Positions 21,608 to 44,283 of a stretch of DNA of 64,000 nt are shown here, piece after piece. The stretch comes from an uncultured delta proteobacterium (GTDB lineage: Bacteria > Desulfobacterota > Binatia > Binatales > Binataceae), in assembly GCA_963724765.1 (NCBI GenBank), contig CAVRVY010000002.1, positions 480,001 through 544,000 on the forward strand. The letters run 5' to 3'. How positions within the stretch are numbered: the first letter of the stretch is position 1; every line of letters begins with the position of its first letter. Under the pieces are notes generated by a model. That model worked only from the letters and a program-made list of their open reading frames with translations. It did not search any database and was not told the DNA's origin. The position numbers and the translations under genes are program-made.

Positions 21608-21684
21608 TGGCGCCCCCTGCGGGATTCGAACCCACGGCCCCAGGATTAGGAATCCTGTGCTCTATCCATCTGAGCTAAGGGGGC
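21608..21684 (-). tRNA. tRNA-Arg(CCT)
   Basis: GCCCCCT/AGGGGGC acceptor stem, TAGCTCAG..GGATAGAGC D arm, CAGGA-TTCCTAA-TCCTG anticodon arm, GTTCGAATC, encoded CCA. Confidence 0.97.
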
Positions 21685-27436: not shown

Positions 27437-28789
27437 ATGGAAACCGCGCAAACCAACACACCTGACTCTCACGACGTGACGTTGCGGTCTTTATTGAAGC
27501 TACGGAATGGTTCGAAGAATATTCTGCAGAATCGCGAGAATTCGCAGCTGGAATTCAAGGAAACGTTCAATCTTGGCAGCCTTGCGAAATATGGCCGTAC
27601 GATGGCGGCTTTCGCCAACAACAGGGGTGGCTACATCGTCTTCGGCGTTGAGCCCTCTCCCCATCGCCTGAAAGGTGTGAACAAAACCAAGTTCGAGGAG
27701 TGTGACCCCGCGCAAGTAACGCAGTTCCTGAACGCTCACTTCGGCCCCGAGATCATCTGGGAAATGGAAACCGTCGAATTCTTCGGGACATCGCTCGGCT
27801 ACATTTACATTTCTGAGGCAGATGAAAAGCCGGTCGTCGCCATATCAAACGCGGCAGATATCAGAAGCGGAGAAGTTTATTTTCGGTACAAAGGTCAGAC
27901 TTCGACCATTCGATACCCAGAGCTCAGAGCAATTATTGACGCTCGAATTACGCGTGAGCGACAGGCGTGGCTTCAGCACCTCCGTACGATTGAGCGGGTT
28001 GGTCCCCGAAATGTCGGCATCCTCGACACCATCCATGGAAAGCTTTATGGGGCCGGGACTCCGTTTTTGATAGATGAGAAGCTGCTACGGCAGCTTAAAT
28101 TCATTCGGCGTGGTCAGTTTTCCGACGGCGAGGGGGCGCCGGCCCTGCGCGTGCTTGGAGATGTGCAATCGATCAAGGGTATCGAGAAAGAAAAGCCCGT
28201 GCCGACCGGTATCCACGCTGACGATTTGATAACGGCATTTTTGGCGCAACGGCCTTTGGACGAATCGGAGGCTCGAAGCTATCTGAGGGAGGCCACGTAT
28301 CAGAACACGCCGTACCTGCCGATCCATTACCTCGTCAATCTTTCCGGGTTGTCTCAATCGGAGGCCCAGGGCCTTATCAAGACAAGCCAGTCGTCGCTGA
28401 CGGGCCAAAAGAAAAATCTCACTGAAAGAATTGCGCGAGATCAGGCCGTGAAGCTAATGGGTACCGTACAATCCGCTCCCAATATCTTGACCTCCACGGA
28501 ATTTGAAAGGTCATTCGAGCAAGCTAAGACCGTCAAAGAACGGCGTTCTCTTCTTGTTGCGACAATGCTGCGAAGCCCGAGGTTGTTGCAAGAATTTGTA
28601 CCCAGCCTGCCGCTCGGGCTGTTATCCGAAGCCGTAACCCACCTCAATACGTCGGATCTTCGAAAGCTTAAGGGAGACCTCCTCGAACTTCTCCTGAGCG
28701 CTTTCGCGAACCGCTTTCAGGACGCGTCGAGTTCGGAAAGATCAGCTTTCAGGAAGGCCGTGGCCTTCTGCGACGAAAAGCTGAATTGA
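27437..28789 (+). CDS. AlbA_2/Schlafen-domain protein with unknown C-terminus
   Basis: RENSQLEFKE..MAAFANNRGGYIVFGV. Confidence 0.85.
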   Translation: METAQTNTPDSHDVTLRSLLKLRNGSKNILQNRENSQLEFKETFNLGSLAKYGRTMAAFANNRGGYIVFGVEPSPHRLKGVNKTKFEECDPAQVTQFLNAHFGPEIIWEMETVEFFGTSLGYIYISEADEKPVVAISNAADIRSGEVYFRYKGQTSTIRYPELRAIIDARITRERQAWLQHLRTIERVGPRNVGILDTIHGKLYGAGTPFLIDEKLLRQLKFIRRGQFSDGEGAPALRVLGDVQSIKGIEKEKPVPTGIHADDLITAFLAQRPLDESEARSYLREATYQNTPYLPIHYLVNLSGLSQSEAQGLIKTSQSSLTGQKKNLTERIARDQAVKLMGTVQSAPNILTSTEFERSFEQAKTVKERRSLLVATMLRSPRLLQEFVPSLPLGLLSEAVTHLNTSDLRKLKGDLLELLLSAFANRFQDASSSERSAFRKAVAFCDEKLN

Positions 28790-29009
28790 TGCCGTTCGGT
28801 CGCGTTTACCGATGTTGCCGCGATATGCTGCAACGCTTGGGAAATGGCGCCCGAGCGGGATTCGGAAAAGAGATCATCTAAAATGCGGTAAAATGCGGCT
28901 CGCACGGTTTCTGCTGCCGCAGGATTCCGTTGAAGAACTTTTGCCCGCGTCGGTTCGGCGAGAGGCGCGGCGCCCGAACGTATTGCGCGAGCGCCGCGCG
29001 GCTTCATTC

Positions 29010-29891
29010 CTAAGAGAGCCGACCGAGGATGTAATCGGCGGCGCGCTGCGCATGGGCGGCAGCATGGATCATAAGCTTGCGGTCAGCACGAAGCCGGTTT
29101 AACCAGCCAGAGACGTATGCGGCTTGGTTCTGGATGACCGCGTTTGAGATTCCGGCTTCGGCACAGAGGAATGCGGCTCCCAATTCCGCGCACAGTTCTT
29201 CTTTCGAGTAGACGGCGGAACCGAACGGGGCGGCTTCGCAAACCCCTTCTCGCGCAAGGCGTTTCTCACTTCCAGAACTATGGACGCTCTCATGCATCGC
29301 AGTGGCGTAAAATTCCTCGGCGCTGGTGAAAAGTTCACGCGGCGGCAGGGTGATGCGATCGGTAATCGGACTATAGAAAGCTTTGGAGCCTGCGTACTGA
29401 ATCTCGGGCGGGTTGGGCATGCCGGCGATGATCCGCTCGGCCGCTTCGATCGGATCGTGCTTGTGCGTCTCGACCTTCGGCAGCTTGTCGAGCACTGCCT
29501 GCGGCAGTTCGCATTGTTCGAGGTTGAACAGGCGATAATATCTGAGCAGGAACCGGCGGCGCGTCTTCCCGCCGGTCTCCTCGTTGTCGAGGTCTTCCGT
29601 GCTCTGCTTGGCATCGTCAACCTTCCAGAACACGACAACCGTGCTCTCCTCGCCTTTGCGGATGTGTCCGCCAAGTTCGTTCGCCTGGCGCATCGTCAGC
29701 CAATACGGTGAAACGTATTTGGATGCCGAGAGCAGAAAGTGGTTGATGCCGCGATATGGCTTCTTGCTCACAAGGTTGCGCGGTAGTCCGGTTGAGGTCC
29801 ACGGCCTGCGCCACGGTACCACGCCGCTTTCAAGCAGATTGATGATCTTTTCGGTCACGATTGCGTAGATGTCCATTTCCGTAGTCTCCAA
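29010..29891 (-). CDS. ardC: Antirestriction protein ArdC
   Basis: VPWRRPW, YRGIN, W.T.RQA..LGG.IRKGE, HESVHS, YSKEELCAELGA. Confidence 0.93.
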   Translation of the reverse strand: METTEMDIYAIVTEKIINLLESGVVPWRRPWTSTGLPRNLVSKKPYRGINHFLLSASKYVSPYWLTMRQANELGGHIRKGEESTVVVFWKVDDAKQSTEDLDNEETGGKTRRRFLLRYYRLFNLEQCELPQAVLDKLPKVETHKHDPIEAAERIIAGMPNPPEIQYAGSKAFYSPITDRITLPPRELFTSAEEFYATAMHESVHSSGSEKRLAREGVCEAAPFGSAVYSKEELCAELGAAFLCAEAGISNAVIQNQAAYVSGWLNRLRADRKLMIHAAAHAQRAADYILGRLS

Positions 29892-29950
29892 TTGTGATTT
29901 GGATGGTTGCGGGAGAACCGCTTGCGCGGCTCTCCCGTGGTGGGTTGGAA

Positions 29951-30346
29951 CTAAAAGGGGATGTCGTCGGAAGCTTCAGCCTTGGACGTGTTCCCGTTCG
30001 AGCCGTTGCCGAGCAGGCGGAGTTGTCGCGCGACGATTTCGGTCCGGTAGCGCTTGCCGCTGCCGTCCTTGGCTTCGTACTGGCGGGTAGTGAGCCGACC
30101 TTCGACGTAAACTTGCCGGCCTTTGCCCAGGAACCGCTCGCAGGTGTCGGCCAGCCGTCCGAACGCGACGATCCGGTGCCAATCGGTGCGCTCCTGCTTC
30201 GCGCCGTTGCGGTCCGTAAACCGCTCTGTGGTGGCCAACGAGAAATTCGCCACGTTCTGCCCGGACGGCAGGGCACGAACCTCGGGGTTAGCTCCCAGAT
30301 TGCCGATCACGATCACCTTGTTGATTGCCATAGCCATAACCTCCAT
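29951..30346 (-). CDS. ssb: Single-stranded DNA-binding protein
   Basis: NKVIVIGNLG..WHRIV..KGRQVYVEGRL; C-terminal DDIPF. Confidence 0.96.
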   Translation of the reverse strand: MEVMAMAINKVIVIGNLGANPEVRALPSGQNVANFSLATTERFTDRNGAKQERTDWHRIVAFGRLADTCERFLGKGRQVYVEGRLTTRQYEAKDGSGKRYRTEIVARQLRLLGNGSNGNTSKAEASDDIPF

Positions 30347-31019
30347 TGGTTTTGTTGCGCCCGCTTCCCGTCATCGGGCAGGGCGTGCTGCGCTTTGTTT
30401 TCATCACCGCGCAATTTTTTTCCGCGCGGCCCTCTCCAACTGGACAGGAGGGCCGTGCGCAGATTTCCAGATGCGCGAGCGGAGCGGGCGGCAGGACGTG
30501 ACAGAGCGAAGCGGCCCGAAGGGCTGGCGCGTCGTGCTTGTATGGTGTCCACTGCCGATGCTGCTGCTCGCTCATAGTGAAAGAGGAACTGAACATTTTT
30601 TCCCTCGACCTTGTATGTGTTGAAGAACCAACTTTTCCCCTCGCGCCCTCACTTGATAATGGGTGCGAGGGAAAAGTTGATTGGGGACGTGGGGGTGGAT
30701 GTGCGGCTAAAAAATCTGAGATGCGCTGCCGCGACGATCTGCGGAGGCGGGCCAGGATTCTTTTCCTGGCCAACGACGCCGATCGTGGCGAGCCAACCAA
30801 TGAATGAGATCGGCTAAGATGCGAAAAAAGTTTCCCGAAGAGGTGTCGCCGCCGGCCGTGCTGAAGGGTAATTCCTTGTGCGCTAGATTGGCGCCCTCGT
30901 CCGGGGCTCAGGGCTCGAACGGTATCCAGAGGCGCAAGCGGCGTCCTCGAATGGACAAGCAAGAGCGTGAGTTCCGGCTCCGAGGCTCGGGGAACCAAGT
31001 CGTGGAAGGAGGAAGGTTG

Positions 31020-32217
31020 ATGAGGTTTGCGGGAATCGACGTCGGAGCGGAGCGTCACATGGTGGCAATGGTGGATACGGAGGGCAAGGTGCTATGTCGT
31101 TCCAGCCCTTTTGGCGAGGACGCGTCGGGCTATGCGCATCTGTTCGAGCTGCTCGGCCCACCCGAGGGTTGTCTGCTCGCCTTGGAAGCCACTGGACACT
31201 ACTGGCGGAATCTATTCGTCGCTTTGTTAGCAAAGGGCTACGCAGTCGCGGTGTTGAATCCATTGCGTACGCGGCGCTTTGCCGAGGAGGAGCTGCAGCG
31301 GACCAAGACCGACGCGATCGATGCGTTGGGAATCGCGCGGTTTGCTGCCCAGAAGCGACCGCCAGCGACGCAACTGCCTGACGTCGCGACGGAAGAGCTG
31401 CGTGAATTGGCGCGGCTGCGCGAGCGGCTCCAGGAGGACTTTGCGAGCCGTCTGAGGCAGTTACATCGAGCGGTTGACCTTGGCTTTCCCGAGTTCACGC
31501 GGTATGTGCGCACGCTCGAGAGCCAGCTCGCCGCTACCATTCTGTCGCGCTACCCAACTGCGGCGTCGTTTCGTGGGACGTCGCGTAAAGAAGCTCGCTC
31601 GGATCGTTTACGACGGTTCGCACAAGATCGGTGAAGAACTCGCTCGCGCTCTGATCGAGGCAGCCGCAAAGTCAGTCGGGAGTTATCACTCCGAGCCCTA
31701 CCGATTGCGGATCAAATACCTCTGCGAGGATCTTGATGTGCTGCGCCGCCGGCTGAAGGATCTCGCGCGCGACATTGAAAGCAAGATCGACGATCACGAG
31801 GTAGGCAAACTCCTAACGACGATCGATGGGATCGGACCATTAACCGCCGCCTGTCTGATTGCAGAACTCGGAGATCCGGCACGCTTTCGCAGTGCCGGCG
31901 CGATCGCGAGCTATGTTGGCGTTGCGCCACGACTGCGGCAATCAGGGAAAAAGCGCTTCTTTTCCGGCAGCCCCACTATTCCGTTCGGGAATGCTCGTCT
32001 GCGCAAGGCGCTCTGGATGGTGGTTCTCAACGCCGTGCGATGCAATCCGTGGCTGCGCCAGTATTACGAGCGCCTTCGGGCTGCGGGCAAACCGGGCAAG
32101 GTCGCCGTAATCGCAGCGATGCGAAAGCTGCTCGCAGCGGTATGGAGCGTGGCTATTCACCGCCGACCCTTCGTTCCGCACCTATCTCCACCCGCAACCG
32201 CCAGCGTCGTGACGTAA
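31020..32217 (+). mobile_element. IS110-family DEDD recombinase, +1 frameshift near 31584
   Basis: GIDVG, LEATGHYW, KTDAIDA, TIDGIG, RQSG (catalytic Ser), GNARLR, MRKLL. Confidence 0.92.
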
Positions 32218-32497
32218 GCGTGTGACTGCATCCGGCCGGTGACACTGCGGGCGCGGCACATGAGTGGCACCTTCTATCAGGGAAGGTGCCAAAACGACAC
32301 AATCTTATGTGGACATCGACGCGTGTGCCGGTTCCCTGGCGTCAGCGACCTTCTGCACAGCCGGCGGTCGGTCTCGCAACTAACAGCGAACCCTAGTTCA
32401 CTGCAGGGCGAATCGTGCGCTCCGCAGGAAGCGGAGCGGCCTGCCGCGTTCGAACCCCGACGAACCTTCACACTCCGCGTCTGCGGACTGAGGCAAA

Positions 32498-32725
32498 TGG
32501 CGTGGGCGCTTCCGCCGCAGGAGTTGAGGCGCTTTCGGAATTCCTGACCGGCCTATCCGCAACGCCTGGCATGGCCTTCCTGTTGGTCCTACATCGAGAC
32601 CCAACCCATCCGAGCCTGCTCATCGATATTCTGTCGAAAACGACCGGCGTACCAGTGCTTGAAGCACAAGACGGCATGGCATTGGAGATGGACCATGTTT
32701 ACGTCGTTCCCGCCATCTGCACCGT
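32498..32725 (+). pseudogene. CheB methylesterase-domain fragment
   Basis: GVGASAAGVEAL..GMAFLLVLH.DP..S.L..IL..DHVYVVP; no start, truncated. Confidence 0.8.
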
Positions 32726-32971
32726 CGCGGCGATAGGTTGAAGATGCTCCAGGTGCGCCGCGTGTCAGACAGTCGCGTTGCTGATGTCGGTGATGTCCTG
32801 GATCGCCAGGAGGAGAGCGGATTCGCTTCGAGCAATCGGGAGCAGGCTTTTAGCTCATCGAAGATACTGACCCTTATAGCCGGCATCTTCCTCTTCTGGA
32901 TCGGCGAACCCAGATCCCGAGGTGATAGATTTGGACCGGGCCGGTCGCTGGGTTGCTTCGCGCACGTGCCG

Positions 32972-33290
32972 CTACAGTCCCATCGTCGTGAAAGCCGCCT
33001 TGACCCGCTCGCGCATCCGCGCGTAGTTGCGCTCGAGCTTGGGCTTGCGCCGCGGCCCGGGCCGCTCGCGCAATTCCGCTTCCAGATCTTCGAGCTTGGC
33101 GCGCAGGTCCTTGAGCTTTTTCGTGGAGTCGTTCAGCTTTTTGAGCAGCTTCTCGTTGGCCTCGGGACCACGTTCTTCATCGGGATCCGCAGGCTCTTCG
33201 CTTTCCTCGAAGATATCGCACAGATCGGCCTCGCCAGCCTCGATTCGGTCGCCAAGGTCGATAAGAAAATCCAGCGTAACCGGCGACTTC
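32972..33290 (-). pseudogene. Internal fragment resembling the RpoD (sigma70) non-conserved region
   Basis: Manual translation SPVTLDFLIDLGDRIEAGEADLCDIFEESEE..EKLLKKL..KLERNYARMRERV; no start, internal TAG. Confidence 0.55.
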
Positions 33291-33440
33291 TCGCAATGGC
33301 CGCCGTCGGCGGAGTTTACTTGGCATTGCCCAGAGAACTCGTCATCGGCCCGACATGGCTGCTGCCGAGCGTCATCGCTGTCTTACTCGCCCCGACCATC
33401 GTGACTCATCGCATGGGGCGGCATTCGTTCAATCACGTGT
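33290..33440 (+). pseudogene. Fragment of a membrane protein gene
   Basis: LAMAAVGGVYLALPRELVIGPTWLLPSVIAVLLAP, abutting the rpoD-like piece. Confidence 0.5.
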
Positions 33441-33683
33441 TGATCCCCATCGCGAAGCAGCTTTCCATTTGGAGCGGATCGGGAGATCCACAAACCGCCG
33501 TGGCAGTTTGGAAAGCGTGATCTGACGCTGCCCGATCCCGGACTCAAGGTGTCGTCTGCCGGACGTACCGGGTGAGGTGAAATCTGCCTGGTCTATTCTT
33601 GTGCATGGCGCTTGTCGTGTCGGTCGCGATGGTCGCGGTTTTGGGGCTGCTGGCAGGTGTGCTAAGCAATCCAATCAGGAGAC

Positions 33684-35408
33684 GTGGATCGTTTGGTCCC
33701 TCGAACCGGGCCAGCCAGGGAGACCGGAGCGGAGGACGCTACGGCACAAAAAATTGAGGAGCCGTTGCAACGGAGCTTTACGTCTCGACCGATGGAACAC
33801 GAGGCGGATTTTACTGGAGATCGAGCCGGTAGTCGTTATCAGCTCCTTCTTCAGGTTCTTGAGCTGGCGGAGGCGCCATTCAGCGTCAGCGCAATGCTGG
33901 GGGCGCTGGCGAGCGTTATTGAATCGGTAGTCCCGGTGGACGCGATTCCCGTCGTAACGGTGGATGAGCAGGTCCTGCGTTTCTACGCGGCTTACTTCAA
34001 CGGGGTGCCGCGCAAGGATGGCGATTCGCTCGCGGATTATGCGATGCGAGCTCTGCGCCGGTGTCCTGTCGGGCGGGCGGAAGCGCGTGTGCTGGAGACC
34101 TTCCCAATCCGTGGTTCAGCAACTGAGCACGTGGGCCGCACCCGCGGTGTGCTGGTGCGCCATGGTTTGGATCGCGAGCCGCTCTTCCTAGGTGACCGGC
34201 GGCTGCGGTGGTACGGGATGAACTCTTACGTCCGGGTTCCTCTGTTTGCCAAGGAACGGCTGCTTGGCTCGATCGCATTCTGTCGAACAGACGCCCGCCC
34301 TGGCTTCACCAACAACGAGGTTCAGATTCTGACTGAAGTCTCACGGCCCGCAGCGATCGCGCTTTCTCGTTTTCTGGCTTACGAGGAGATCGAGCGCTTG
34401 CGGCACAGCAGTTTCCCCTGGGTTACAGGTGAGGATCACCCAGCCACTGACGAGATAATAGGTACCTCGGAAACGCTTCGGCGGGTGATTGAGCGGGTGA
34501 GCAAGGTGGCGCGGACCGATGCCCCGGTTTTGATTTCAGGTGAGACCGGCACCGGCAAGGAATTGCTCGCGAATATGCTGCATCAGCTGTCTGGGCGGCG
34601 CGGCCGATTGGTCAAGGTGAATTGTGCAGCCTTGCCCGAAACCCTGATGGCCGCCGAGTTATTCGGCCACGAGCGAGGCGCATTCACCGGTGCCTGGCAA
34701 CGCCGCGAAGGCCATTTTGAGACCGCGGCTGGCGGCTCGATTTTACTTGACGAGGTCGGCGAACTACCGCCGCCTGCGCAGGCGGCCCTGCTGCGGGTGC
34801 TGCAGGACGGAGAATTCCAGCGAATCGGTGGCAGCCGGACTCTCCGGACGAATGCGCGAGTGATCGCTGCGACAAACCGCAGCCTAGTCGAGGCGGTTCG
34901 TCAAGGCCGTTTCCGTGAGGACCTCTTCTATCGACTCAATGTAGTGCCTATCAGGGTGCCGCCTTTGCGCGAGCGCACCGAAGACATTGTCGAATTGGCG
35001 AACCGCTTCGCAGCGCGTTACTCGCAGGCTATGGGCCGCACACCAGGCGTCTTCGAGCGCGAAACACTCGATGCGTTGCTGTCGTATGCGTGGCCAGGAA
35101 ACGTTCGCGAGTTACAAAATGTGATAAGGCGAGGAGTAGTCCTTTCCAATGGTCCAGCGATCGACCTGGACGACGAATTCCTAGGACAAGTGCATGGAGT
35201 GGAAAACCCGGCCACAGTGATCGGAGCCAAGGTAAGTGGGTGTGAGCGGGAACTGATTGAACAGGCTCTCAAAAAAGCAGCAGGAAAAGTCGCTGGTCCG
35301 AAAGGGGCCGCTGCACGGCTGCGCATAGCGCCTTCCACGCTTGAGTATAAGATAAGAAAGTACCATATCGATAAGCTCCATTTTCGTGCCGACGCGGCAG
35401 GCGACTGA
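33684..35408 (+). CDS. GAF-domain sigma54-dependent activator (start uncertain)
   Basis: GAF-like SYVRVPL..LGSI; GETGTGKE, GAFTGA, WPGNVREL, C-terminal HTH. Confidence 0.9.
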   Translation: MDRLVPRTGPARETGAEDATAQKIEEPLQRSFTSRPMEHEADFTGDRAGSRYQLLLQVLELAEAPFSVSAMLGALASVIESVVPVDAIPVVTVDEQVLRFYAAYFNGVPRKDGDSLADYAMRALRRCPVGRAEARVLETFPIRGSATEHVGRTRGVLVRHGLDREPLFLGDRRLRWYGMNSYVRVPLFAKERLLGSIAFCRTDARPGFTNNEVQILTEVSRPAAIALSRFLAYEEIERLRHSSFPWVTGEDHPATDEIIGTSETLRRVIERVSKVARTDAPVLISGETGTGKELLANMLHQLSGRRGRLVKVNCAALPETLMAAELFGHERGAFTGAWQRREGHFETAAGGSILLDEVGELPPPAQAALLRVLQDGEFQRIGGSRTLRTNARVIAATNRSLVEAVRQGRFREDLFYRLNVVPIRVPPLRERTEDIVELANRFAARYSQAMGRTPGVFERETLDALLSYAWPGNVRELQNVIRRGVVLSNGPAIDLDDEFLGQVHGVENPATVIGAKVSGCERELIEQALKKAAGKVAGPKGAAARLRIAPSTLEYKIRKYHIDKLHFRADAAGD

Positions 35409-35459
35409 CGCGATTCAAAACTCGGAATTCTGTGAGTTCGTTGACAAACTCCTGAGATC

Positions 35460-35545
35460 TTGCGAATACCTTCGCAAAATCTTCCAGGAGGCGCGCATGT
35501 CAGACGGAGTATCATGCCGCAAACTGGCATGGCGCGATTCTTGAT
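35460..35545 (+). promoter_or_regulatory. Palindrome plus sigma54-like promoter of the dioxygenase operon
   Basis: TTGCGAA-N4-TTCGCAA (35460-35477); TGGCGCGATTCTTGAT (35530-35545, -12 GA variant). Confidence 0.55.
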
Positions 35546-35599
35546 TCATAGAGACACTGGTGGTCGCCGGCATTCAGGTCAAGCCAATGGTCGTATGCG

Positions 35600-36865
35600 A
35601 TGATGGATCCAGAAAAATTGATAAACTTAGAGCGCAAGACCGTCAGCCCGCGGGTTTTTTCCGATCCTGAAGTCCATCAGGCGGAGCAGGAACGGGTCTT
35701 CACGCGATGCTGGCTGTACGTCGGACATGATAGCCAGGTGCCGAACCCGGGCGACTTTGTCAGCGGCTTTATGGGAGAAGAGCCGGTGATTGTATGTCGC
35801 GGGCCCGACCGGCAAATACGCGTGTTCCTCAATACGTGCCGGCATCGCGGGATGCTGGTGTGCCGGGTGGAAGAGGGCAACGCGAAATTTTTTCGATGCC
35901 CCTACCACGGATGGACCTACGATCTTGAGGGAAACCTGACCGGCGTTCCGGACTACCGTAAGGCTTATCACGGCGACCTCAAGCGTGAGGAATGGCCATT
36001 GCTGCAGGCGCCCAAGGTCAGTTCCTATCATGGGCTGATCTTTGCCTGCCTAGATGAGCATGCAGTCAGCCTGGAAGAGTACCTTGGAGATTTCCGGTGG
36101 TACCTGGATCTGCAGTTCAACCGTACCGAGAGCGGGATGATGACGCTGCCGGGTACGCACAAATGGACGCTCAAGGCGAACTGGAAGTTTGCCGCCGAGC
36201 AATTTGGCGGCGACAACTACCACGCGATGTGGGCCCATGAGAGCGGCGTCAGAATTTCCCTCGCGCAGCAGTTTGGCGGCGAGCATCCGTGGACCAACGA
36301 CTGGGAAGCGAAGACCAAGGAAGGTCATGGCTGGATAAATTTTGCTTTCGCGGATCCGCCGGGAATCGCGGAAGTCGTCGGCCCCTACACGGCGTGGCTG
36401 CGCGAACAGGCGCGCAATCGCCTGACGCCCACTCAGATCGAGCAAATCGGATGCGTACACGTGGGAACCGTGTTTCCGAATTTCTCGATACTCTCGTTCC
36501 TGGGATTTCTGTCCGTGCGCGTCTGGAATCCGCGCGGGCCGACGCAGCTCGATGCGTGGTCATGGGGAATGGTCGAACGTGATGCGCCGGCGGAAATAGT
36601 AAAGCTCGCGCGCGACATCCAGATACGTACTTTTTCGCCGGCGGGAATCTTCGAGCAGGACGACGGCGAGATGTGGTCATACTGCACCGAAGCGTCGGGC
36701 GGTGCGTACCGCCGCCGATTTCCATTGAACTATCAGATGGGAGCGGGGCATGAGCGGGCCGACGCCGATCGTCCAGGCCTGATCCATCCACCCCCGACTG
36801 AGATCGGCGTGTTCGGTTTTTGGGAACGCTGGCGCCGGCAAATGGCCAACGAAGGAACGCGATAG
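35600..36865 (+). CDS. Aromatic ring-hydroxylating dioxygenase alpha subunit
   Basis: CRHRG..CPYHGW Rieske; NWK..AEQF..DNYH..H; EQDDGE. Confidence 0.95.
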   Translation: MMDPEKLINLERKTVSPRVFSDPEVHQAEQERVFTRCWLYVGHDSQVPNPGDFVSGFMGEEPVIVCRGPDRQIRVFLNTCRHRGMLVCRVEEGNAKFFRCPYHGWTYDLEGNLTGVPDYRKAYHGDLKREEWPLLQAPKVSSYHGLIFACLDEHAVSLEEYLGDFRWYLDLQFNRTESGMMTLPGTHKWTLKANWKFAAEQFGGDNYHAMWAHESGVRISLAQQFGGEHPWTNDWEAKTKEGHGWINFAFADPPGIAEVVGPYTAWLREQARNRLTPTQIEQIGCVHVGTVFPNFSILSFLGFLSVRVWNPRGPTQLDAWSWGMVERDAPAEIVKLARDIQIRTFSPAGIFEQDDGEMWSYCTEASGGAYRRRFPLNYQMGAGHERADADRPGLIHPPPTEIGVFGFWERWRRQMANEGTR

Positions 36866-36867
36866 TC

Positions 36868-37365
36868 ATGGATCGCGTCGGTTTGCGACAGCAGCTCGAA
36901 GAGCTGCTCTATCGAGAGGCCTGGTTGCTGGATCAGGATCGGCTCGAAGAGTGGCTGGATCTGCTCAGTGAAAACATTCACTACTGGGCGCCCGTGCGGG
37001 CCGACATGAATCGAGGCAAAGAGGACTTCAGTCCGCCGCTCAGATTGGCATTCTTCGATGACAACAAGGACGGGCTCAGACTGCGCGTCGCCCGGATTCG
37101 CACCGGCGCTGCGCATGCCGACGAGCCGCCCTCACGCGTGCGTCACCTGATAACTAACGTTCAGGTAGTGGAAACGCCGGACGCGGAAACGGCGAAAGTC
37201 GCCTCAAATTTCCTGGTATTCAAAAGCCGCCGCAACCGCGAAGAGAACCTGTTCGTCGGATGCCGGGAGGATACCTGGCGGCTCCACGGTGGCGCATGGA
37301 AGCTCGATGAACGAATGATCCTGCTCGATCACAACGTGATCGAGAACATCACGGTGCTCTTCTGA
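36868..37365 (+). CDS. Ring-hydroxylating dioxygenase beta subunit
   Basis: LYREAWLLD..EWL..YWAP; PPSRVRHLITNV; GCRED. Confidence 0.93.
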   Translation: MDRVGLRQQLEELLYREAWLLDQDRLEEWLDLLSENIHYWAPVRADMNRGKEDFSPPLRLAFFDDNKDGLRLRVARIRTGAAHADEPPSRVRHLITNVQVVETPDAETAKVASNFLVFKSRRNREENLFVGCREDTWRLHGGAWKLDERMILLDHNVIENITVLF

Positions 37366-37394
37366 GCGGTCTGCCCCCACTGGATATTGAAACG

Positions 37395-38192
37395 ATGGAC
37401 CCGAGCGCAGCACAACTATTCGACCTGGGTTCTAAGGTTGCCCTGGTTACGGGTGGCGCCAAGGGAATCGGACGCGGCATCGCCGAGGTACTGGCGGCGG
37501 CGGGCGCCGCAGTCGCAGTCGCGGACATCGACATTGAGGGCGCGAACTCCGTGGCGCAGGCGCTGCAGAACCGGGGCCTCGGCGCGATCGCAATCCAGAC
37601 CGACGTGGCCCAGGAGGAATCGGTAAAGGCCCTGGTGCAAGGGGTGTATGATCACTTCAAGCGCCTGGACATCCTGGTTAACAACGCCGGCATTTTCCCG
37701 ATGAAGCGGTTGCGCGAACTCGACGCGGCGACCTGGGACCGCACGAACGGAGTCAATCTTCGCGGGGCCTATCTCTGCACGCGGCACGCCGCCGAACGAA
37801 TCATCGCGGGAAACGCGGGCGGGCGGATCATCAACATCTCAACTATCAATACTGCGCGCACGTATCTGGGTATGGCGCACTATGACGCCAGCAAATACGG
37901 ACTCAACGCGTTGACTAAAGCGAGCGCTCTCGAGTACGCGCCGTTTGGAATCACCGTCAATGCGATCGCGCCGGGCGCGGTGAAAACTCCCGGCTCGCTC
38001 AAGGTGCGGAGCGAACTGGGAGGCGGATCCGTCGAGGCCGCGGATGCGGAGTTCGCAAAGCGCATCCCTCTAGGGCGCTGGGCCGAACCCGAAGATATCG
38101 GTCGAGCCGTGTTGTGCTTGGCCGGGCGAGCGGCAGATTATATTACCGGGCAGATTATCTATGCGGACGGAGGCTTGATGCTCGGGTTTTGA
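37395..38192 (+). CDS. SDR dehydrogenase (probable dihydrodiol dehydrogenase)
   Basis: TGGAKGIG, NNAG, YDASK. Confidence 0.88.
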   Translation: MDPSAAQLFDLGSKVALVTGGAKGIGRGIAEVLAAAGAAVAVADIDIEGANSVAQALQNRGLGAIAIQTDVAQEESVKALVQGVYDHFKRLDILVNNAGIFPMKRLRELDAATWDRTNGVNLRGAYLCTRHAAERIIAGNAGGRIINISTINTARTYLGMAHYDASKYGLNALTKASALEYAPFGITVNAIAPGAVKTPGSLKVRSELGGGSVEAADAEFAKRIPLGRWAEPEDIGRAVLCLAGRAADYITGQIIYADGGLMLGF

Positions 38193-38228
38193 GCAAACCC
38201 GAGCTTTGCACGACAGCGGAAGGTCATC

Positions 38229-39119
38229 ATGACAAGTGTTTCACAACTCGGGTACCTGGGACTTAAGGTCTCGAATCTCGATGCATGGGAAAACTTCGCC
38301 ACGCAAATTCTGGGAATCGAGAGCGTGGGTCGGAACGAGAACAGCGGCTTGATGTTCCGGATCGATGAATATCAGTACCGCTTCGTGCTCGAGCAAGGCG
38401 CCAAGGACGACCTCGACCTGATCGGATGGCAAGTCGACGACGAGCACGCACTGAGTGCCGTGGCGGATCAGCTAACGGCGGCCGGAGTCGAGGTGCAGCG
38501 CGGTTCGGCAGCGGAGGCGGAAACGCGCCGGGTCGTGGAGCTAATCAAGTTCAAGGATCCGAGCGGGATTTCGTCCGAAGCCTTCTACGGTGCGCTGACC
38601 CGGATCGATATACCATTCAGGCCGGCGCGGCCGATCGCCGGCTTTGTCGCCTCCGGGATGGGCCTTGGGCACATCACGATGGGTGTCGACGATATGCAGC
38701 AGAGTCTCGCGTTCTATCGCGACGTTCTGGGCATGCGGCTGAGCGATTGGGTGCAGCCGCAGCCCGAGCGCGACGTCAGATCGCGCTTCAACATCGCCTT
38801 CCTGCACTGTAACCCGCGCCATCACTCGCTCGCGTTCTGGCAGGCGCGGATGCCCAAGCGGCTCCATCATTTCATGCTCCAGCTCGAGTCGCTGGATGAC
38901 GTGGGTACGACCTACGATCTCTGCCAGCAGCGAGGAGTGCCGCTCGAACTCACGCTCGGCCGCCATACCAACGACCGGATGTTGTCCTTCTACGTGCGGA
39001 CTCCCTCGGGCTTCAGCGTCGAGTATGGATGGGGCGCGCGAACGGTCGACGATCGCGACTGGCAGGTGCAACTGCATCGTACCGGCAGCATCTGGGGACA
39101 TCATAAAGCGGGCGCCTGA
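38229..39119 (+). CDS. Type I extradiol dioxygenase (BphC/HsaC-like)
   Basis: LGYLGL, GLGH, FLHCNPRHHS, LHHFM, GRHTND..SFY..PSGFSVEYG. Confidence 0.93.
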   Translation: MTSVSQLGYLGLKVSNLDAWENFATQILGIESVGRNENSGLMFRIDEYQYRFVLEQGAKDDLDLIGWQVDDEHALSAVADQLTAAGVEVQRGSAAEAETRRVVELIKFKDPSGISSEAFYGALTRIDIPFRPARPIAGFVASGMGLGHITMGVDDMQQSLAFYRDVLGMRLSDWVQPQPERDVRSRFNIAFLHCNPRHHSLAFWQARMPKRLHHFMLQLESLDDVGTTYDLCQQRGVPLELTLGRHTNDRMLSFYVRTPSGFSVEYGWGARTVDDRDWQVQLHRTGSIWGHHKAGA

Positions 39120-39137
39120 GCCGACGGAGAAAAGTAC

Positions 39138-40154
39138 GTGGCAAACTATAGGAAGAAAGAGGCGCGCGATTGGGCGTGGGCCAACATGCGCGGAGTGGCT
39201 AACGTGGTGAATCCCACGTTTACCGAGGATCTGTCCGGGCTCAACGAAAAGGCTATTCGCTACGATGTTCGCAAGGAGATCGAATACGGGTTCTGGGGTG
39301 CGTTGCTGATTGCTGAAACTGCGACCACTCCTGAAGAATATGTACGCTTTACGCAGTGGGCGGCGGACGAGGCGCGCGGCAAGCTGCATCTGATATTTCA
39401 CGCATCCTTCAACACCTTGGCGCAGAACGTTTCGGTCGCGCGCGCTGCGCACGAGGCCGGCGCGGACCTGGTGCTTCTTGCTTATCCGGCCAACTTTTAC
39501 GCGCGCAGCAACCAGGACATTTATGACTACACCAAAGCTTTCTGCGACCAGGTCGACATGGGAGTGATCCTCTTCCCGGTGCCGCTGTGGGGCTTCGAGC
39601 GAATTCATCCTGCCGGAATGGAAATTGACCTGATCCGCAGATTGGTCGACGACGTGCCCAATATCGTTGCAATCAAGGCGGAAGGCGGGATGCCGACGAT
39701 CGGCGGATTCGTCGAAGTGTACAAGACGGTCGGCAAACGGGTAATTGTGACTTCGCCGTTGGAATGGGACGGCATCCCACTGGCGTCGCTGGTACCGATC
39801 CAGTTCATGGGCACCAGTAACTACGAATTCTATGGTCCCACCATACCCAAAATGTTCGCCCTGATGCAGGAGGGCGAGTTCACCGAGGCGATGAAGCTAT
39901 TCTGGAAAATCCATCCGGCACGTCTGGCGAATCTCCAGGCTATGTCGCTGCTGGCGGGCTCCAACTTTCTCCATCGGATGCTCTGGAAATATCAGGGCTG
40001 GCTGCAGGGCTTCAATGGCGGACCGCTGCGGCAGCCCACGATGCGCCTTGTGGACCGCCAGTTGCGACCGTTGCGCAACGCGCTCGAGCAATGCGGCCTC
40101 AATCCATGGCCCGAGCCGGACGGCGATTTCTTTGTAGGCCGCAACCCGGCCTGA
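39138..40154 (+). CDS. DHDPS/NAL-family aldolase (possible hydratase-aldolase)
   Basis: TIM-barrel pattern with Schiff-base Lys in PNIVAIKAE; AHEAGADLVLL. Confidence 0.82.
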   Translation: MANYRKKEARDWAWANMRGVANVVNPTFTEDLSGLNEKAIRYDVRKEIEYGFWGALLIAETATTPEEYVRFTQWAADEARGKLHLIFHASFNTLAQNVSVARAAHEAGADLVLLAYPANFYARSNQDIYDYTKAFCDQVDMGVILFPVPLWGFERIHPAGMEIDLIRRLVDDVPNIVAIKAEGGMPTIGGFVEVYKTVGKRVIVTSPLEWDGIPLASLVPIQFMGTSNYEFYGPTIPKMFALMQEGEFTEAMKLFWKIHPARLANLQAMSLLAGSNFLHRMLWKYQGWLQGFNGGPLRQPTMRLVDRQLRPLRNALEQCGLNPWPEPDGDFFVGRNPA

Positions 40155-40166
40155 AGCCGTCCCCCG

Positions 40167-41156
40167 ATGCTCCTTTTGAACGCGAGCGAGGTCGAACGCC
40201 TGGCCGACATGACGAGGCTTGTGGCGGCCGTGGAAGCCGGGGTGCGCGAGCAGGCTACTGGACAGGTGGTGCTGCCACCGCGTCTCAACCTTCCGAACGG
40301 GCGCGGCTTCTTCCGGATTATGCCCACCGTTATGAACGGCAGCGGCATCATGGGATTCAAGGCCTTTCATGGATCGGTGCAGGACGGCGTCCGTTATTTT
40401 ATCGCTATCTACGAGCAGGCCAGCGGAGTTCTGTTGGCAATGATGGACGCCCACTATCTGACGGCCGCTCGGACGGGCGCCACGACTGGTGTCGCAACCA
40501 GATTCATGGCCTGCCGCAGCGCGCGCCGGGTTGCAGTGATTGGTTCGGGGCTCGAGGCCCGAACGAATCTCCTCGGTGTCTGCGCGGTGCGCGACGTCGA
40601 GCGCGTCACCGTTTTTAGTCCAAATCGTGAGCGCCGAGCAGCCTTCGCCGAGCGCATGAGCCGGGAGCTAAAAATCGAGGTCAGAGCCTGCGACACCCCC
40701 GAAAGCTGCGTGGAGGGAGCCGACATCGTGGTGGTCGCCACCAATACCACGGGCAAGGGCGATGGGATCGCTTATCGCGGCGCGTGGGCTCGCGCTGGGG
40801 TGCACATCAACGCAATTGGTTCGACGATGCCCAAGTTGCGCGAAATTGATCCGGAGAGCTTTGCCCGCGCAGAACGAGTAGTAATCGACTGCCAGACAAG
40901 ACAAATCGAAGAAGAATCGGGTGACGTCATCGACGCGCTCGCCCACGACACCTACGACCGCAGCAAAGTTATCGAACTGCAGGAAGTCGTCGCCGGGCGC
41001 GCACCTGGCCGCGAGGCGGACGAGCAAATCACGCTGTTCAAGTCCGTCGGCACGGCGGTTCAGGACGTAGCTAGCGGGTACGCCGTTTATCAGGAGGCGC
41101 GCCGTCTCGGCGTCGGCTCCGACGTGCCTGATTTTCTCGAATTGAAGATTTTTTAG
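40167..41156 (+). CDS. Ornithine cyclodeaminase/mu-crystallin family protein
   Basis: LTAARTGA, IGSGLEA, GVHINAIGS, ITLFKSVGTAVQDV. Confidence 0.92.
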   Translation: MLLLNASEVERLADMTRLVAAVEAGVREQATGQVVLPPRLNLPNGRGFFRIMPTVMNGSGIMGFKAFHGSVQDGVRYFIAIYEQASGVLLAMMDAHYLTAARTGATTGVATRFMACRSARRVAVIGSGLEARTNLLGVCAVRDVERVTVFSPNRERRAAFAERMSRELKIEVRACDTPESCVEGADIVVVATNTTGKGDGIAYRGAWARAGVHINAIGSTMPKLREIDPESFARAERVVIDCQTRQIEEESGDVIDALAHDTYDRSKVIELQEVVAGRAPGREADEQITLFKSVGTAVQDVASGYAVYQEARRLGVGSDVPDFLELKIF

Positions 41157-41205
41157 CGGTGGAATCATTTTCCATCGCCCGATCGCCCGGTAGCGGGGTC
41201 GAGTT

Positions 41206-41300
41206 ATGGGTGTGAGAACCGGCAAGCAGTACGTCGAAGGACTTCGGGCGATGCCACTAAATTACGGCGGCTCGACGGTTGCCAGTATGATGACGGCGAA
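41206..41300 (+). pseudogene. N-terminal stub of an HpaB-like flavin hydroxylase
   Basis: MGVRTGKQYVEGLR then frame decay. Confidence 0.55.
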
Positions 41301-41469
41301 TCGCTTCTTGATACGGGCAAACGTCGGCAAGCGGAGGCGGATCGACGATTTCGACCGGCGTTCGAGACAATGAAACGAGTCGGCACGAGCAACCCCACGC
41401 GCAAGTCGATCACCGAACTAGCCCAGTTTCGCAGCGCGGCGGTTGTCAAGACTTTGCGTCGATCTCTCG

Positions 41470-41860
41470 GCCTTGAAAGGACTCACCGGACTTAGCCCGA
41501 AGCAGTTCGATGGACTGGTAGGGCAGCTCAGGGTCCGTAGTTTTTCGCAAGCGCGCGATCATTTACAGCGCAAAGCAAGAAAGTGACACGATCCATATCA
41601 TACTCTCGGGCATCGCCCGGCTCACCTCCGTCAATCGCAAGAACGAACGTGTTCTGCTCGAGGTGCTCGGCCCTGGCGACGTGGTATGCATGCCTCCACT
41701 GCTGCCCGACGTGCGCCACAGTCTGGAATGCGAAGCTTTCACCGATTGCGAAATCGGCGTGCTCAGCGCAGACGCTATGGTCGAAACCGTCGGTCTTGAG
41801 TACGACAAATTCCTCCTCGCGCTGAAGCTCACGATGGGCCGCTGGTGGGCGCTGCTGTCA
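41470..41860 (+). pseudogene. Crp/Fnr-type cNMP-binding regulator fragment
   Basis: GIARLTSVNRKNERVLLEVLGPGDVV..CEAFTDCEIG; disrupted upstream, no HTH. Confidence 0.6.
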
Positions 41861-42376
41861 AACCATTCTGACGCGGAGGGAAACAACCAAGCTGAAGACC
41901 ATCGAGCTGCGACGCCGGCTGCATCACCAGGCTGCAGCCTGAACTTCGACTCTGATGGGCCTGATCCTCTCTTAAATCCATTGCTAACTTGTCCAAAAGG
42001 TTCTGACGACATACAGCTTGACGGACCCCACGGGTATCTAGCGCAGCGAACGCCACCACCTAAAGCGGCGCGAAGCGGAGACCGCATGGGCGGAGGGGTA
42101 AGGGGACGGGCCGCGACGCGGAGTTTACGGAGCGCTCGTGGGGCGGCTCACAGCGCAGCGCCGCGCGGCATGTTGCCGTGGACCGGAGGGGTATGATCAC
42201 GGTGGGACGGAAGGGCTTCTGGTAGCCGATGAATAAGCGGCAGATGGTCTTCTGGCGCTTGGGGATTGGTGTGAGGCCGGGTTTGGAGAAGCGCGATCAG
42301 GTCGTAGTGCTCTTCAGGGCGAATGGCGAAGCGCGCGACGGGCGTGGAAGCACAGCGACGAGATTCGCTTAAGTCG

Positions 42377-43141
42377 ATGAAACTGCAGATTCTGTCAGAT
42401 CTTCATTTGGAAATGGTCACGCCGCCGTATTCATGGCGCATTCCGGAGAGCGTTGCGGAGGTCGTGGTTCTCGCCGGCGATATCGGCGTAGGGGTCATCG
42501 GGGGTGAAGTGGGCGGTACGAGAGGCTGAGCGTCTCCGGAAGCGTGCTGTTTATGTGCCGGGCGAACCACGAGTATTACGGAGAGCGGCTGAACGTGCTG
42601 GAGAAGATGAGGGCGGTGGCGCGCGGCTCCCGGGTTTCTGTTCTGGATTTGGACGAAGTGATGCTGGAGGGAGTGCGGTTTCTGGGCGCCACGCTATGGA
42701 CCGACTATCTGGCTTTTGGGCGCGAGCATCGTCGGGACGCGATGGATAAGGCGGCCCGGTTCCTGAACGATCATCGATTGATCAATCGTCCGGACGGCTT
42801 TACGCCGGGGGATGCGCTTGAGCGTCACGAACGCGGACGAGCGTGGCTGGAGGCAAAGCTCGCCACCAACTGGGATGGTCCGACCGTCGTGGTTACTCAC
42901 CACGCTCCGTCTCTCCTGGGCACGGACGGGAGATTCCGGAACGATTATCTGACCGGCGGCTTTCGTTTCCGACCTGAAGGAGATCATCGGGAAATATTCG
43001 CCGACCACCTGGATACATGGCCACACGCATCACTGCGTTCAGTACATCGTCGGGAAGACTCGGCTGGTCGCAAATCAGATGGGCTATCCGCACGAGCCCG
43101 CGACGGGACAATTCGATCCGGGTTTGGTGGTCGATATCTAG
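42377..43141 (+). CDS. Calcineurin-like metallophosphoesterase (about 3 frameshifts)
   Basis: SDLHLE, LAGDI, GNHE across a shift, GATLWTD, THHAP, WIHGHTH, NQMGY. Confidence 0.85.
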
Positions 43142-43159
43142 TTGCCGGGACCGGTGTAG

Positions 43160-43450
43160 CCGCCGGTGCAAGACTGACCCAGGGTCACCGTGAGCGGTTC
43201 ATCGAATCGATCATCTCGACCTGCTACGTCGCGATGATGAGTTGTGGGCCGTCGTTCTTGGCGCTGTTCGCGCGCGGCGATGCCGGCTGTACAAGCAGGA
43301 CCTCGTCGGGCGCGGGAATCAGCAGCTGTTTGGGCGAAAGCGAATCGGCTTTGGTGGGATTTATCCAATCATCGGGGGCGGGGTCGTCGAGAACGACGGG
43401 CATGCGGTTATGAATGGGCCGCATCAGCGCGTTGGGCTCGCACGTAGTGA
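43160..43450 (-). pseudogene. 3' remnant of a second SRAP gene (diverged direct repeat of 44259-44550)
   Basis: CEPNALMRPIHNRMPVVL..ANSAKNDGPQLI; shared GACCCAGGGTCACCGTGAGCGGTTC. Confidence 0.85.
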
Positions 43451-43458
43451 CCTAGCGC

Positions 43459-43767
43459 TCATGCCGCGGCGGTCAGCGGTCGCGCACGTTCGATCCGCTT
43501 GCGTTCGCGGGGCGAATGCATCGCTTCCCACAGATCGCTGCGCCGCTGCACGTTCAGCCAGAAATCCGGGCTGTTGCCGAACACGCGGGCGAGAATGAGG
43601 GCTGTCGCCGCCGTCACATTGCGACGATTGTTGCATAGTTCATTGACATGCTTGCGTTGCACGCCCATCGCTTCAGCCAGCGCGCCTTGCGTCAGGCCCA
43701 TCGGCTCCATGAACTCTTCAATCAGAATTTCGCCAACGCTCGCTGGCTTGCGCTTCGTCGTCAGCAT
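43459..43767 (-). CDS. higA: HigA antitoxin
   Basis: GEILIEEFMEP.GLTQ..LA..F..SPDFWLNVQ. Confidence 0.92.
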   Translation of the reverse strand: MLTTKRKPASVGEILIEEFMEPMGLTQGALAEAMGVQRKHVNELCNNRRNVTAATALILARVFGNSPDFWLNVQRRSDLWEAMHSPRERKRIERARPLTAAA

Positions 43768-43775
43768 GGCTCACC

Positions 43776-44072
43776 TCACAGATAACTATGGTCGTCCAGA
43801 TAGACGCCTGTCGCTTCACCTCGGCCGCCATCCCACTGGAAGATGAGCCGCCATTGTTTGTTGACGCGGATCGAATGGAAACCTTCCAAATTGCCGTGCA
43901 GCTTTTCAAAATGGTTGCTGGGCGGCACTCGTAAATCCTGAACCGTCGTCGCATCGTCGATCATCTGGATTTTGCGGAACAAACGGCTTTCCAGATCGGA
44001 TGGGATTTTCTTTGATCGAACGTCCTCGACAAAGAATTCGCGCAGCCAGTCATCCCGAAAGCTCACGATCAT
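43776..44072 (-). CDS. higB: HigB/RelE toxin
   Basis: MIVSFRD..DLRVPPSNHFEKL.G..HSIRVNKQWRLIF. Confidence 0.92.
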   Translation of the reverse strand: MIVSFRDDWLREFFVEDVRSKKIPSDLESRLFRKIQMIDDATTVQDLRVPPSNHFEKLHGNLEGFHSIRVNKQWRLIFQWDGGRGEATGVYLDDHSYL

Positions 44073-44283
44073 TCCGTGACTCCATTATGAACCAATGTAC
44101 CACTCTATGGGATCACCCGCAAGCTCGATGCCCGATCTGCCGGAAGCACTGCACAACCGTTCACGTCGGCCGCCCATCTATCGGACGGGGCATCAACGCT
44201 CTCGATCAGCCTGACCTGCTTGAGCAGCCCCTGCCGGGCTGGCGACAGCCGCTTGTAACCGCCGTCGCAAAACTGACCCAGGG

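Follow-up and report, generated by a model that had tools for sequence, protein, structure and literature searches.

A probable cargo-bearing IS110-family element enclosing an aromatic-dioxygenase cluster in an integrative conjugative element

We analysed a 64,000-nt stretch of DNA (contig CAVRVY010000002.1, positions 480,001-544,000 of the forward strand; hereafter "the window", whose positions are used throughout) that contains an IS110-family recombinase gene (tnp). Positions 30539-42037 of the window very likely constitute one expanded, cargo-bearing element of the IS110 subgroup, with its bridge RNA 5' of tnp. In order, the 11.5-kb element comprises a long left end (LE), the bridge RNA (30840-30977), a DEDD/Tnp20 recombinase gene, 9.8 kb of passenger genes, and a right end (RE) of 22 nt, and it is bounded by the core dinucleotide CT on the left (30537-38) and on the right (42038-39) (Table 1). 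The insertion point is in an integrative conjugative element (ICE), in its ardC-ssb region and some 190 bp upstream of ssb. The RE is displaced to a point about 9.8 kb beyond the recombinase gene, and an aromatic-dioxygenase cluster is thereby enclosed.

Ends and target site of the element

The ends were derived by comparison with 66 related loci (referred to by L numbers), obtained in one profile scan of genome contigs with the recombinase alignment as the query. The closest of these loci are in metagenome-assembled genomes (MAGs) of Binataceae or "delta proteobacterium". When the 560 nt 5' of tnp from the window and from 19 close loci were aligned with MAFFT, L006, L007, L008, L009, L011, L015, and L022 proved unrelated to the window upstream of 30537-39; the ssb-side backbone to the left of the LE is common to the window, L001, L003, L004, L005, and L010. 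Five copies in a single MAG (L043-46 and L059) have five differing flanks up to the sequence CT/TGTAT. Because the flanks diverge at this point and because CT/TGTAT is the start found family-wide, we placed the left end at 30539, after the CT at 30537-38. In BLAST comparisons of the window with the loci, the alignments of close relatives reached left to 30524-30536 or ran on through ssb and ardC, and the alignment of every locus ended near 32178, within the variable C-terminal tail of tnp. A left end at the CT of 30524-25, which would put the stretch GGCGCG..GTG inside the element, was ruled out, as L016, L006, L011, and L015 differ there and the family terminus is CT/TGTAT; the CT at 30524-25 is the core used by the variant in L016.

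The right end was recognized from a motif in the junctions of relatives, which consists of a -35-like TTGAC, about 8 nt, CACGGTAT, and then CT. In canonical relatives, which measure 1422-1588 bp from LE to RE, this motif (TTGAC..CACGGTATCT) terminates the element just 3' of the recombinase gene. A family-wide scan found it directly after tnp in distant canonical relatives, with a different flank each time, and it directly follows the tnp stop in L018 and L022. With at most one error allowed, the motif has a single match in the 64-kb window, at 42029-42039. The RE of the window is homologous to those of L002, L003, L005, L006, L009, and L022, and a homologue of 42016-42165 is found 0.7-2.8 kb downstream of tnp in L002, L003, L005, L009, and L010 and about 45 nt downstream of it in L022. 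L006 departs from L005 directly after the core plus 5 nt. Candidate right ends with two or more errors (window 40459, L004, L013, and L014) were judged spurious (RTG run of 2; see below for this guide) and were dropped.

The sequences on the two sides of the element are the halves of one target. In L048:8733-8870, read on the reverse strand, the left half (LT), the CT, and the right half (RT) run together without interruption, and L037 has this join (30526-30538 to 42040 onward) in its last bases. The same backbone site is occupied in L002, L003, and L005 by elements with a shorter cargo of 1.6 kb.

One alternative is that two unrelated events are recorded here, namely an IS of about 1.7 kb that lacks its right end and, 9.8 kb downstream, a solitary relic of a right end, with ICE backbone between them. 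The window has no RE motif after tnp, loss of the RE is known in L010, and tandem copies occur in a relative, where RE motifs precede the LE of L008 and L009. However, the contiguity of LT and RT in L048, and in part in L037, argues against two independent events, as does the occurrence of the same two flanks around different, shorter cargos in L002, L003, and L005; moreover, both flanks match the element's own left and right target guides (LTG and RTG). We therefore regard this explanation as improbable.

A repeat search of the window gave nothing connecting the two ends of the element, and none of the 25 inverted repeats listed (of 41) pairs them, although no test was dedicated to this point. 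A plasmid collection contained no close relative of the IS, of either flank, or of the cargo, and it consequently gave no empty site.

Two further observations concern the right half of the target. Homologues of 42040-42165 are present in reverse orientation at L037:6380-6558 and L048:8700-8960. The one in L037 directly follows the RE of a distant IS110 relative, which is in the opposite orientation and about 110 bp from the insertion point of the window; the one in L048 may lie inside the cargo of that element, because it is about 45 nt upstream of an RE motif. From these sequences, the backbone stretch 42040-42165 looks like an insertion hot spot.

Bridge RNA, guides and proposed recombination

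With RNAalifold, 30 sequences gave two modules, each with a stem, an internal loop, and a hairpin (30 pairs, 97.8% of cells paired). Two-sided changes were observed in 16 of the 30 pairs, compared with 4.6 +/- 1.4 in shuffles (0 of 500 reached 16) and 4-9 in slid controls; helices 4-6, in the donor-binding loop, had them in 12 of 18 pairs. A second bridge-RNA-like match, found with loose anchors at window 28843, was rejected as a chance match with no homology.

All four guide segments match the DNA expected of them. The RTG matches the reverse complement of 42038-42045 (core plus right flank) in an 8-nt run, and the LTG has a 6-nt run with LT plus core. The left donor guide (LDG) repeats the right-end terminus, and the right donor guide (RDG) contains ACAAG, the reverse complement of CT plus TGT at 30537-41. 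Across the family, a run of at least 7 between the RTG and the reverse complement of core plus RT was found in 17 of 23 cognate pairs and in 6.4% of 454 non-cognate pairs, and a run of at least 5 between the LTG and LT plus core in 22 of 34 cognate pairs as compared with 9.0% of 992 non-cognate pairs.

Guides and DNA also change together. By eye, one T-to-C change is found in both the LDG and the RE terminus of the L043 group, and in L021 the LDG and the left-donor sequence are altered to match. L016 (and likewise L012) has a distinct LTG and an RTG ending in CCAG, and L016 is inserted in the same backbone at the CT 13 nt upstream (window 30524-25). Its own LTG matches the flank there over 10 nt, and the bases that follow its CT fit its RTG. 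The RTG of L056 is different again, and over 7 nt it agrees with the flank of the displaced RE in that locus.

The ends given here differ from those of a preliminary description of the same DNA, in which the element ran from 30883/30887 to 42041 with matching CTAG ends and left a palindromic empty site, TGCG-CTAG-CGCA. As written, that model has almost no chance of being correct. Its strings do exist. CTAG is present at 30883-86, TTGACG at 42018-23, and GGGTATCTAG at 42032-42041, and the TGCG left of 30883 and the CGCA right of 42041 are reverse complements. Many distant relatives also have BLAST alignments that begin at 30885 (others begin at about 30833), which is explained by the variable guide nucleotides just upstream. 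However, the sequence on both sides of 30883 aligns in 19 of 19 close loci, with CTAG in 17 and CCAG in 2, and this position is on the 3' side of the target-binding loop, some 350 nt away from the left end. Independent insertions diverge at 30537 and none of them does so at 30883, and before the CTAG the uninterrupted homologues read CGTG (L037) and CTTG (L048), not TGCG. The pairing of CTAG sites alone is not beyond chance, because the tetranucleotide occurs 57 times in the window and 2 of the 56 other sites (23922 and 42038) extend palindromically by at least 4 nt with the left flank of 30883. The apparent palindrome has its origin in the RTG, the last four bases of which are the CTAG at 30883-86 and which complements 42038-42045.

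Several other parts of that description can be judged in the same light. Since 30887 is not a left end, the junction promoter TTGACG-N15-TAGATT does not exist, but the assignment of the -35 box TTGACG to the right end was correct. The right end proposed at 42041 was within 2 nt of ours (RE to 42037, core at 42038-39). An empty site made by joining 30882 to 42042, together with the circle junction that went with it, is contradicted by L048 and L037, which read 30526-30538 joined to 42040 onward. Both outer flanks were said to resemble GCGAAGCG/GCGGAGCG-rich DNA, and this appears to hold for 30460-30536 and 42040-42165. Neither the division of tnp between two frames nor a CTAG at 32393 had been remarked on. 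The latter, 176 nt past the tnp stop, is irrelevant; it was ruled out as a canonical right end, having no RE motif and no counterpart in relatives.

A number of observations weigh against the interpretation of 30539-42037 as one such element. In the DNA alignment the extra base near 31584 is missing from 6 of 6 relatives and amounts to a +1 frameshift in tnp. The left-donor terminus of the window has one G more than that of relatives, and this reduces the LDG match to about 6 nt. A promoter scan of the integrated left end gave no sigma-70-like sites, Rfam gave no family at E <= 1 in 28000-45000, and the window RNA alone folds no better than shuffles (z = -0.39), a result that is uninformative. 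Eleven loci, in which the script did not locate the cap hairpin, were left out of the guide statistics, and the cognate RTG runs of L003 (4) and L017 (3) are weak. The uninterrupted homologues are sequences of other MAGs and not an empty allele of this locus, and in L037 the left side of the join spans only 6 nt before the contig ends. Lastly, comparison with the 66 loci and with the plasmid collection revealed neither a second copy of the 11.5-kb unit nor any homologue of its cargo.

A single expanded IS110 element at 30539-42037 could be expected to recombine in the way described by Durrant et al. 2024 (PMC11208160), on which our proposal is modelled. The two hybrid junctions would recombine at the CT core and a circle would be released, in which the right and left ends abut and form the predicted promoter TTGACG-N18-TATGGT (N17 in relatives). 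This junction promoter would drive the bridge RNA and tnp. The donor-binding loop would pair with the RE-CT-LE junction and the target-binding loop with ...CGTG / CT / AGCGCA..., and the recombinase would exchange strands at CT. We infer circle formation and the junction promoter by analogy; the lack of a sigma-70-like site in the integrated LE is consistent, if weakly, with dependence on the junction.

Cargo, recombinase gene and movement

The passenger DNA of the window comprises a putative aromatic-catabolic cluster with a sigma-54 activator (Table 1). Nine of its open reading frames (ORFs) were scanned against Pfam and NCBIfam; seven were assigned, two had no match, and none is a transposase or integrase. 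The cargo showed no homology to the 66 loci save for a 138-nt stretch of its sigma-54 activator that matches the backbone sigma-54 activator of L041. The left edge of the cargo (32200-33000) had no similarity to the backbone flanks (best E = 0.15).

In close relatives the RE has been displaced by other passengers. Between tnp and RE, L002, L003, L005, and L006 carry a DUF1254/DUF1214 protein (1.4-1.7 kb), L009 a response regulator and a hybrid kinase (2.7 kb), L056 a globin and a MOSC protein (1.6 kb), and L048 a TonB-dependent receptor (2.7 kb). No right end was found within the 1.8-4.4 kb available in L001, L004, L007, L008, L011-L016, and L036. The preliminary description would have been given up if homologous copies ended just after tnp. 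Canonical relatives do end there, but this does not refute the idea of a cargo-bearing element, because in the close relatives the RE has been moved away by these other cargos. In the long-LE group only L017 and L022 are minimal, and short-LE relatives are mostly canonical.

A version with cargo has moved as a unit. L005 and L006 contain a 3.3-kb version in two genomic contexts; they are 98.3-99.7% identical from LE to RE, and both flanks are different. Of the 11.5-kb element no second copy was found, and its movement as a unit is hypothetical. The earlier proposal that one IS110 mobilises the whole dioxygenase operon can thus be kept in part: the cluster and the sigma-54 activator are inside the element, but "mobilises" says too much for a copy with a frameshifted tnp and no second 11.5-kb example.

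Two routes can be proposed for the entry of the cargo. It may have accumulated in situ between tnp and RE, as in the loci of Hu et al. 2026, or the element may have arrived already loaded. A strict form of the first route holds that an old canonical insertion was inherited with the ICE, that the 9.8 kb entered later, and that the enlarged unit never moved whole. The IS and the backbone are similarly diverged from relatives (L001, 87% over 28968-32190; L003, 87%), as expected from co-inheritance. The same site holds differing cargos (L002, L003, and L005 versus L001), the tnp of the window is frameshifted, and, according to Hu et al. 2026, such loci grow in situ on the downstream side of the transposase module and lose whole-unit mobility as they become larger. 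On the other hand, the 3.3-kb version was relocated as a unit (L005 versus L006), and the window itself is compatible with an earlier movement of the 11.5-kb unit. We give this strict form a little less than an even chance.

It could also be speculated that the IS is a bystander and that recombination independent of IS110 fills the interval between tnp and RE, which would then be no more than a variable region of the ICE. The ICE does encode a tyrosine integrase of its own (21701-22960) as well as an IS630-like transposase (45753-46856). However, at least five unrelated cargos occupy the same short slot, delimited by the tnp stop and by the RE with its -35 box, two such cargo elements (L006 and L056) are outside the ardC-ssb context, and the window cargo has no other transposase or integrase. 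This explanation is therefore very unlikely.

A broader and rather speculative possibility, which we think is probably not correct, is that the IS110 module upstream of ssb acts as an RNA-guided dock for cargo. The outer junctions of long-LE elements would be fixed while gene modules are taken up and swapped in the slot between tnp and RE, and tandem arrays, for which L016, L008, and L009 (below) are the example, would arise by the stacking of guide variants that use neighbouring CT cores. The ICE would provide transfer and IS110 the loading, a modular arrangement somewhat like that of an integron.

A stretch of about 36 kb on contig CAWDXY010000004.1 contains L016, L008, and L009, all oriented alike, and the left ends of L008 and L009 are each preceded, at a distance of 11 nt, by an RE motif. 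To judge from this arrangement, three elements of about 18.5, 12.7, and 4.4 kb may be stacked here, with unseen gaps of about 8 and 2.2 kb. The flank after the putative right end of L008 fits the RTG of L008 poorly. In L002, about 1.2 kb (L002:3119-4700) separates the ssb-side backbone from the conserved part of the LE; it contains a truncated second IS110-family ORF (3825-4616) and a duplicate of window 30689-30766, and the tip of the left end was not found in L002.

The recombinase has an N-terminal DEDD (RuvC-like) domain and a C-terminal Tnp20 domain. Its N-terminal part matches the Pfam family DEDD_Tnp_IS110 (PF01548, 2.3e-33, profile positions 1-155 of 155) and its C-terminal part Transposase_20 (PF02371, 3e-27, profile positions 2-87 of 87). 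The NCBIfam model transpos_IS110 gave 1.3e-34 and 119.9 bits, which is under the 140-bit cutoff because the N-terminal part alone was scanned. A protein search returned many intact homologues of 390-400 aa, with up to 95% identity over the N-terminal part, and 17 of 17 aligned homologues are unbroken at the frameshift of the window. Barring assembly errors, the window copy is thus probably crippled in cis, both by the frameshift in tnp and by the 1-nt insertion in the left-donor terminus. Assembly indels, as opposed to real decay, deserve serious consideration, because the phosphoketolase (XFP) gene of the window is likewise split, into overlapping ORFs in different frames (11751-13454 and 13303-14178); that gene may be either a pseudogene or the product of an assembly indel.

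Other copies are also altered. The tnp of L002 has an extra base too, 10 nt upstream of that of the window, and L006 has a 217-bp deletion within tnp as compared with L005 (at L006:5606-5607). The right end is missing from L010, as are some of the DUF1214 cargo gene and about 66 nt at the start of the right flank (L010:6780-6835).

The LE has features of its own. The long-LE subgroup (L001-L022, L012, L036, and L056) has an extra conserved ~250-300 nt between the LE tip and the bridge RNA, including a long hairpin with the apical stem GGCCAGG...CCTGGCC, and it is this subgroup that mostly carries cargo. The insert specific to the LE of the window repeats part of a hairpin arm, and at 30610 it has a right-donor-like CTTGTAT, that is, core plus LE start (7 nt). 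An insert that opens in this way would be in keeping with the half-site matches of Hu et al. 2026.

Relation to known systems and genomic setting

Cargo-bearing IS110 elements are already known as a kind, since Hu, Xie, Yang, and Rubin 2026 (bioRxiv 10.64898/2026.08.14.744561, a preprint of August 2026) reported expanded loci of up to about 100 kb. In their account such loci grow step by step beyond the transposase module while the site stays the same; tandem modules occur, and internal boundaries show half-site matches. At 11.5 kb the present element is outside the compact definition of the IS110 subgroup (about 1.0-1.6 kb, with a short RE directly after tnp), a size criterion that the same authors argue is too narrow. 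As in their loci, an IS110 recombinase and a bridge RNA are combined with DNA added downstream of the module in a fixed outer context, tandem full modules occur, LTG and RTG are complementary to the flanks, and the cargo has no other transposase. Hu et al. stress plasmid-derived and antimicrobial-resistance cargo in long-read isolates, whereas here the cargo is an aromatic-catabolic cluster in an ICE of uncultured Binataceae-like hosts. Their main text, supplements aside, has no mention of "dioxygenase", "catabol-", "degradation" or "integrative and conjugative". The details that seem new are the catabolic cargo, the ICE setting, the use of adjacent CT cores by guide variants, and the apparently cargo-prone long-LE subgroup.

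The core machinery is that of IS621 and the canonical IS110 subgroup (PMC11208160), with a DEDD and Tnp20 recombinase, a bridge RNA in the LE with target- and donor-binding internal loops, a CT core, and a -35 in the RE and a -10-like sequence in the LE that would face each other across the predicted circle junction; the guide pairing rule is also stated in that work. The recombinase is compared with that of IS621 at the level of the family domains, which both have. Unlike compact elements such as IS621, which measures 1,279 bp (Hu et al. 2026), this one has an LE of 481 nt and 9.8 kb between tnp and RE. It resembles elements of the ISPpu9 and ISPpu10 type, which target repeated intergenic sequences (PMC11208160; bioRxiv 10.64898/2026.03.19.712850), in its sequence-specific insertion into a conserved intergenic sequence; in contrast to them, its target is not a chromosomal REP (repetitive extragenic palindromic) element but ICE DNA, namely a GCGNAGCG-rich stretch on the upstream side of ssb. 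The same site in this ICE family has been struck repeatedly, both by a distant relative (L037) and by variants for which a neighbouring CT serves as the core.

Integron- and transposon-like platforms have a site-specific recombinase module beside a slot that holds varying passenger genes. The present element is similar in that its recombinase module adjoins a slot with differing passengers in relatives. Unlike integrons, it lacks attC sites and cassettes; an IS right end delimits the slot, and recognition is RNA-guided.

These comparisons have several implications. A bridge-RNA guide and the flank that it pairs with can mimic "matching ends" and a "palindromic empty site". As a natural example, the element allows its four guide segments, its two ends, and its target to be read directly and to be checked by covariation. 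It would widen the known range of cargo-bearing IS110 elements to include a catabolic cluster as cargo and a conjugative element of uncultured soil bacteria as host. Should the long-LE subgroup indeed be specialised for cargo, bridge recombinases tolerant of large donors would have a natural source in it.

Table 1. Positions of the element, its parts, its cargo and neighbouring genes in the window
Feature	Position	Strand	Remarks
Left target half (LT), ICE backbone upstream of ssb	30526..30536	+	ends CGTG; CGTGCT (core included) is a 6-nt LTG match
Core dinucleotide CT, left junction	30537..30538	+	CT directly before TGTAT in 25 of 32 displayed relatives and in close loci
Left end (LE), 481 nt	30539..31019	+	starts TGTATGG; -10-like TATGGT at 30541-30546
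Window-specific insert in LE, ~36-40 nt	30607..30645	+	missing from all other aligned rows
Extra conserved hairpin domain	30700..30775 (approximate)	+	long-LE subgroup only; RNAalifold, 15 sequences: 27 pairs, 7 with compensatory changes
Target-binding loop	30840..30898	+	outer stem; LTG 30852-30862; cap hairpin 30863-30877; RTG 30878-30886
Donor-binding loop	30901..30977	+	LDG 30918-30927; cap hairpin 30928-30949; RDG 30950-30960
IS110-family recombinase gene (tnp)	31020..32217	+	one extra base near 31584; N-terminal part in frame of 31020, C-terminal part in frame of 31474
Passenger DNA, 9.8 kb	32218..42015	+	
CheB fragment	32415-32738		Pfam, NCBIfam
GAF/sigma-54 activator	33684-35408		Pfam, NCBIfam
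Ring-hydroxylating dioxygenase alpha	35600-36865		nearest NCBIfam models HcaE/HcaF, below cutoff
Ring-hydroxylating dioxygenase beta	36820-37365		nearest NCBIfam models HcaE/HcaF, below cutoff
SDR	37395-38192		Pfam, NCBIfam
BphC-like extradiol dioxygenase	38229-39119		353 bits versus cutoff of 366
DHDPS-family protein	39138-40154		Pfam, NCBIfam
Ornithine cyclodeaminase family protein	40167-41156		Pfam, NCBIfam
Cargo stretch without gene assignment	41157-42015		
Right end (RE)	42016..42037	+	-35 TTGACG 42018-42023; left-donor terminus 42029-42037, one G more than relatives
Core dinucleotide CT, right junction	42038..42039	+	from junction sequences, RE motif scan and guide matches
Right target half and conserved ICE backbone	42040..42165	+	42040-42045 pairs with RTG; ~82-83% identity to post-RE sequence in L002, L003, L005, L009
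tRNA-Arg	21608-21684		
Tyrosine integrase	21701-22960		adjoins tRNA-Arg
Sigma-54 activator, ICE backbone	24160-25131		common to L010 and L041
ArdC	29013-29891	-	Pfam
SSB	29954-30346	-	NCBIfam
IS630-like DDE_3 transposase	45753-46856		
TrbL/VirB6	59978-61195		
VirB4/TrbE, weak match	63143-63970		right window edge

The surroundings are those of an ICE, with an integrase beside a tRNA gene, type IV secretion genes, and ardC/ssb. The pair of tRNA-Arg and integrase, TrbL/VirB6, and the weak match to VirB4/TrbE indicate that an ICE is integrated at tRNA-Arg and that the window includes its left boundary and a large part of its length; its right boundary is beyond the window. To the left of the ICE are housekeeping genes for G6PD, phosphoketolase, P-type ATPases, and PPK2. 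A 296-nt direct repeat with 83% identity (43155-43450 and 44254-44549) is found on the right side of the element, close to an SRAP gene (44287-44994).

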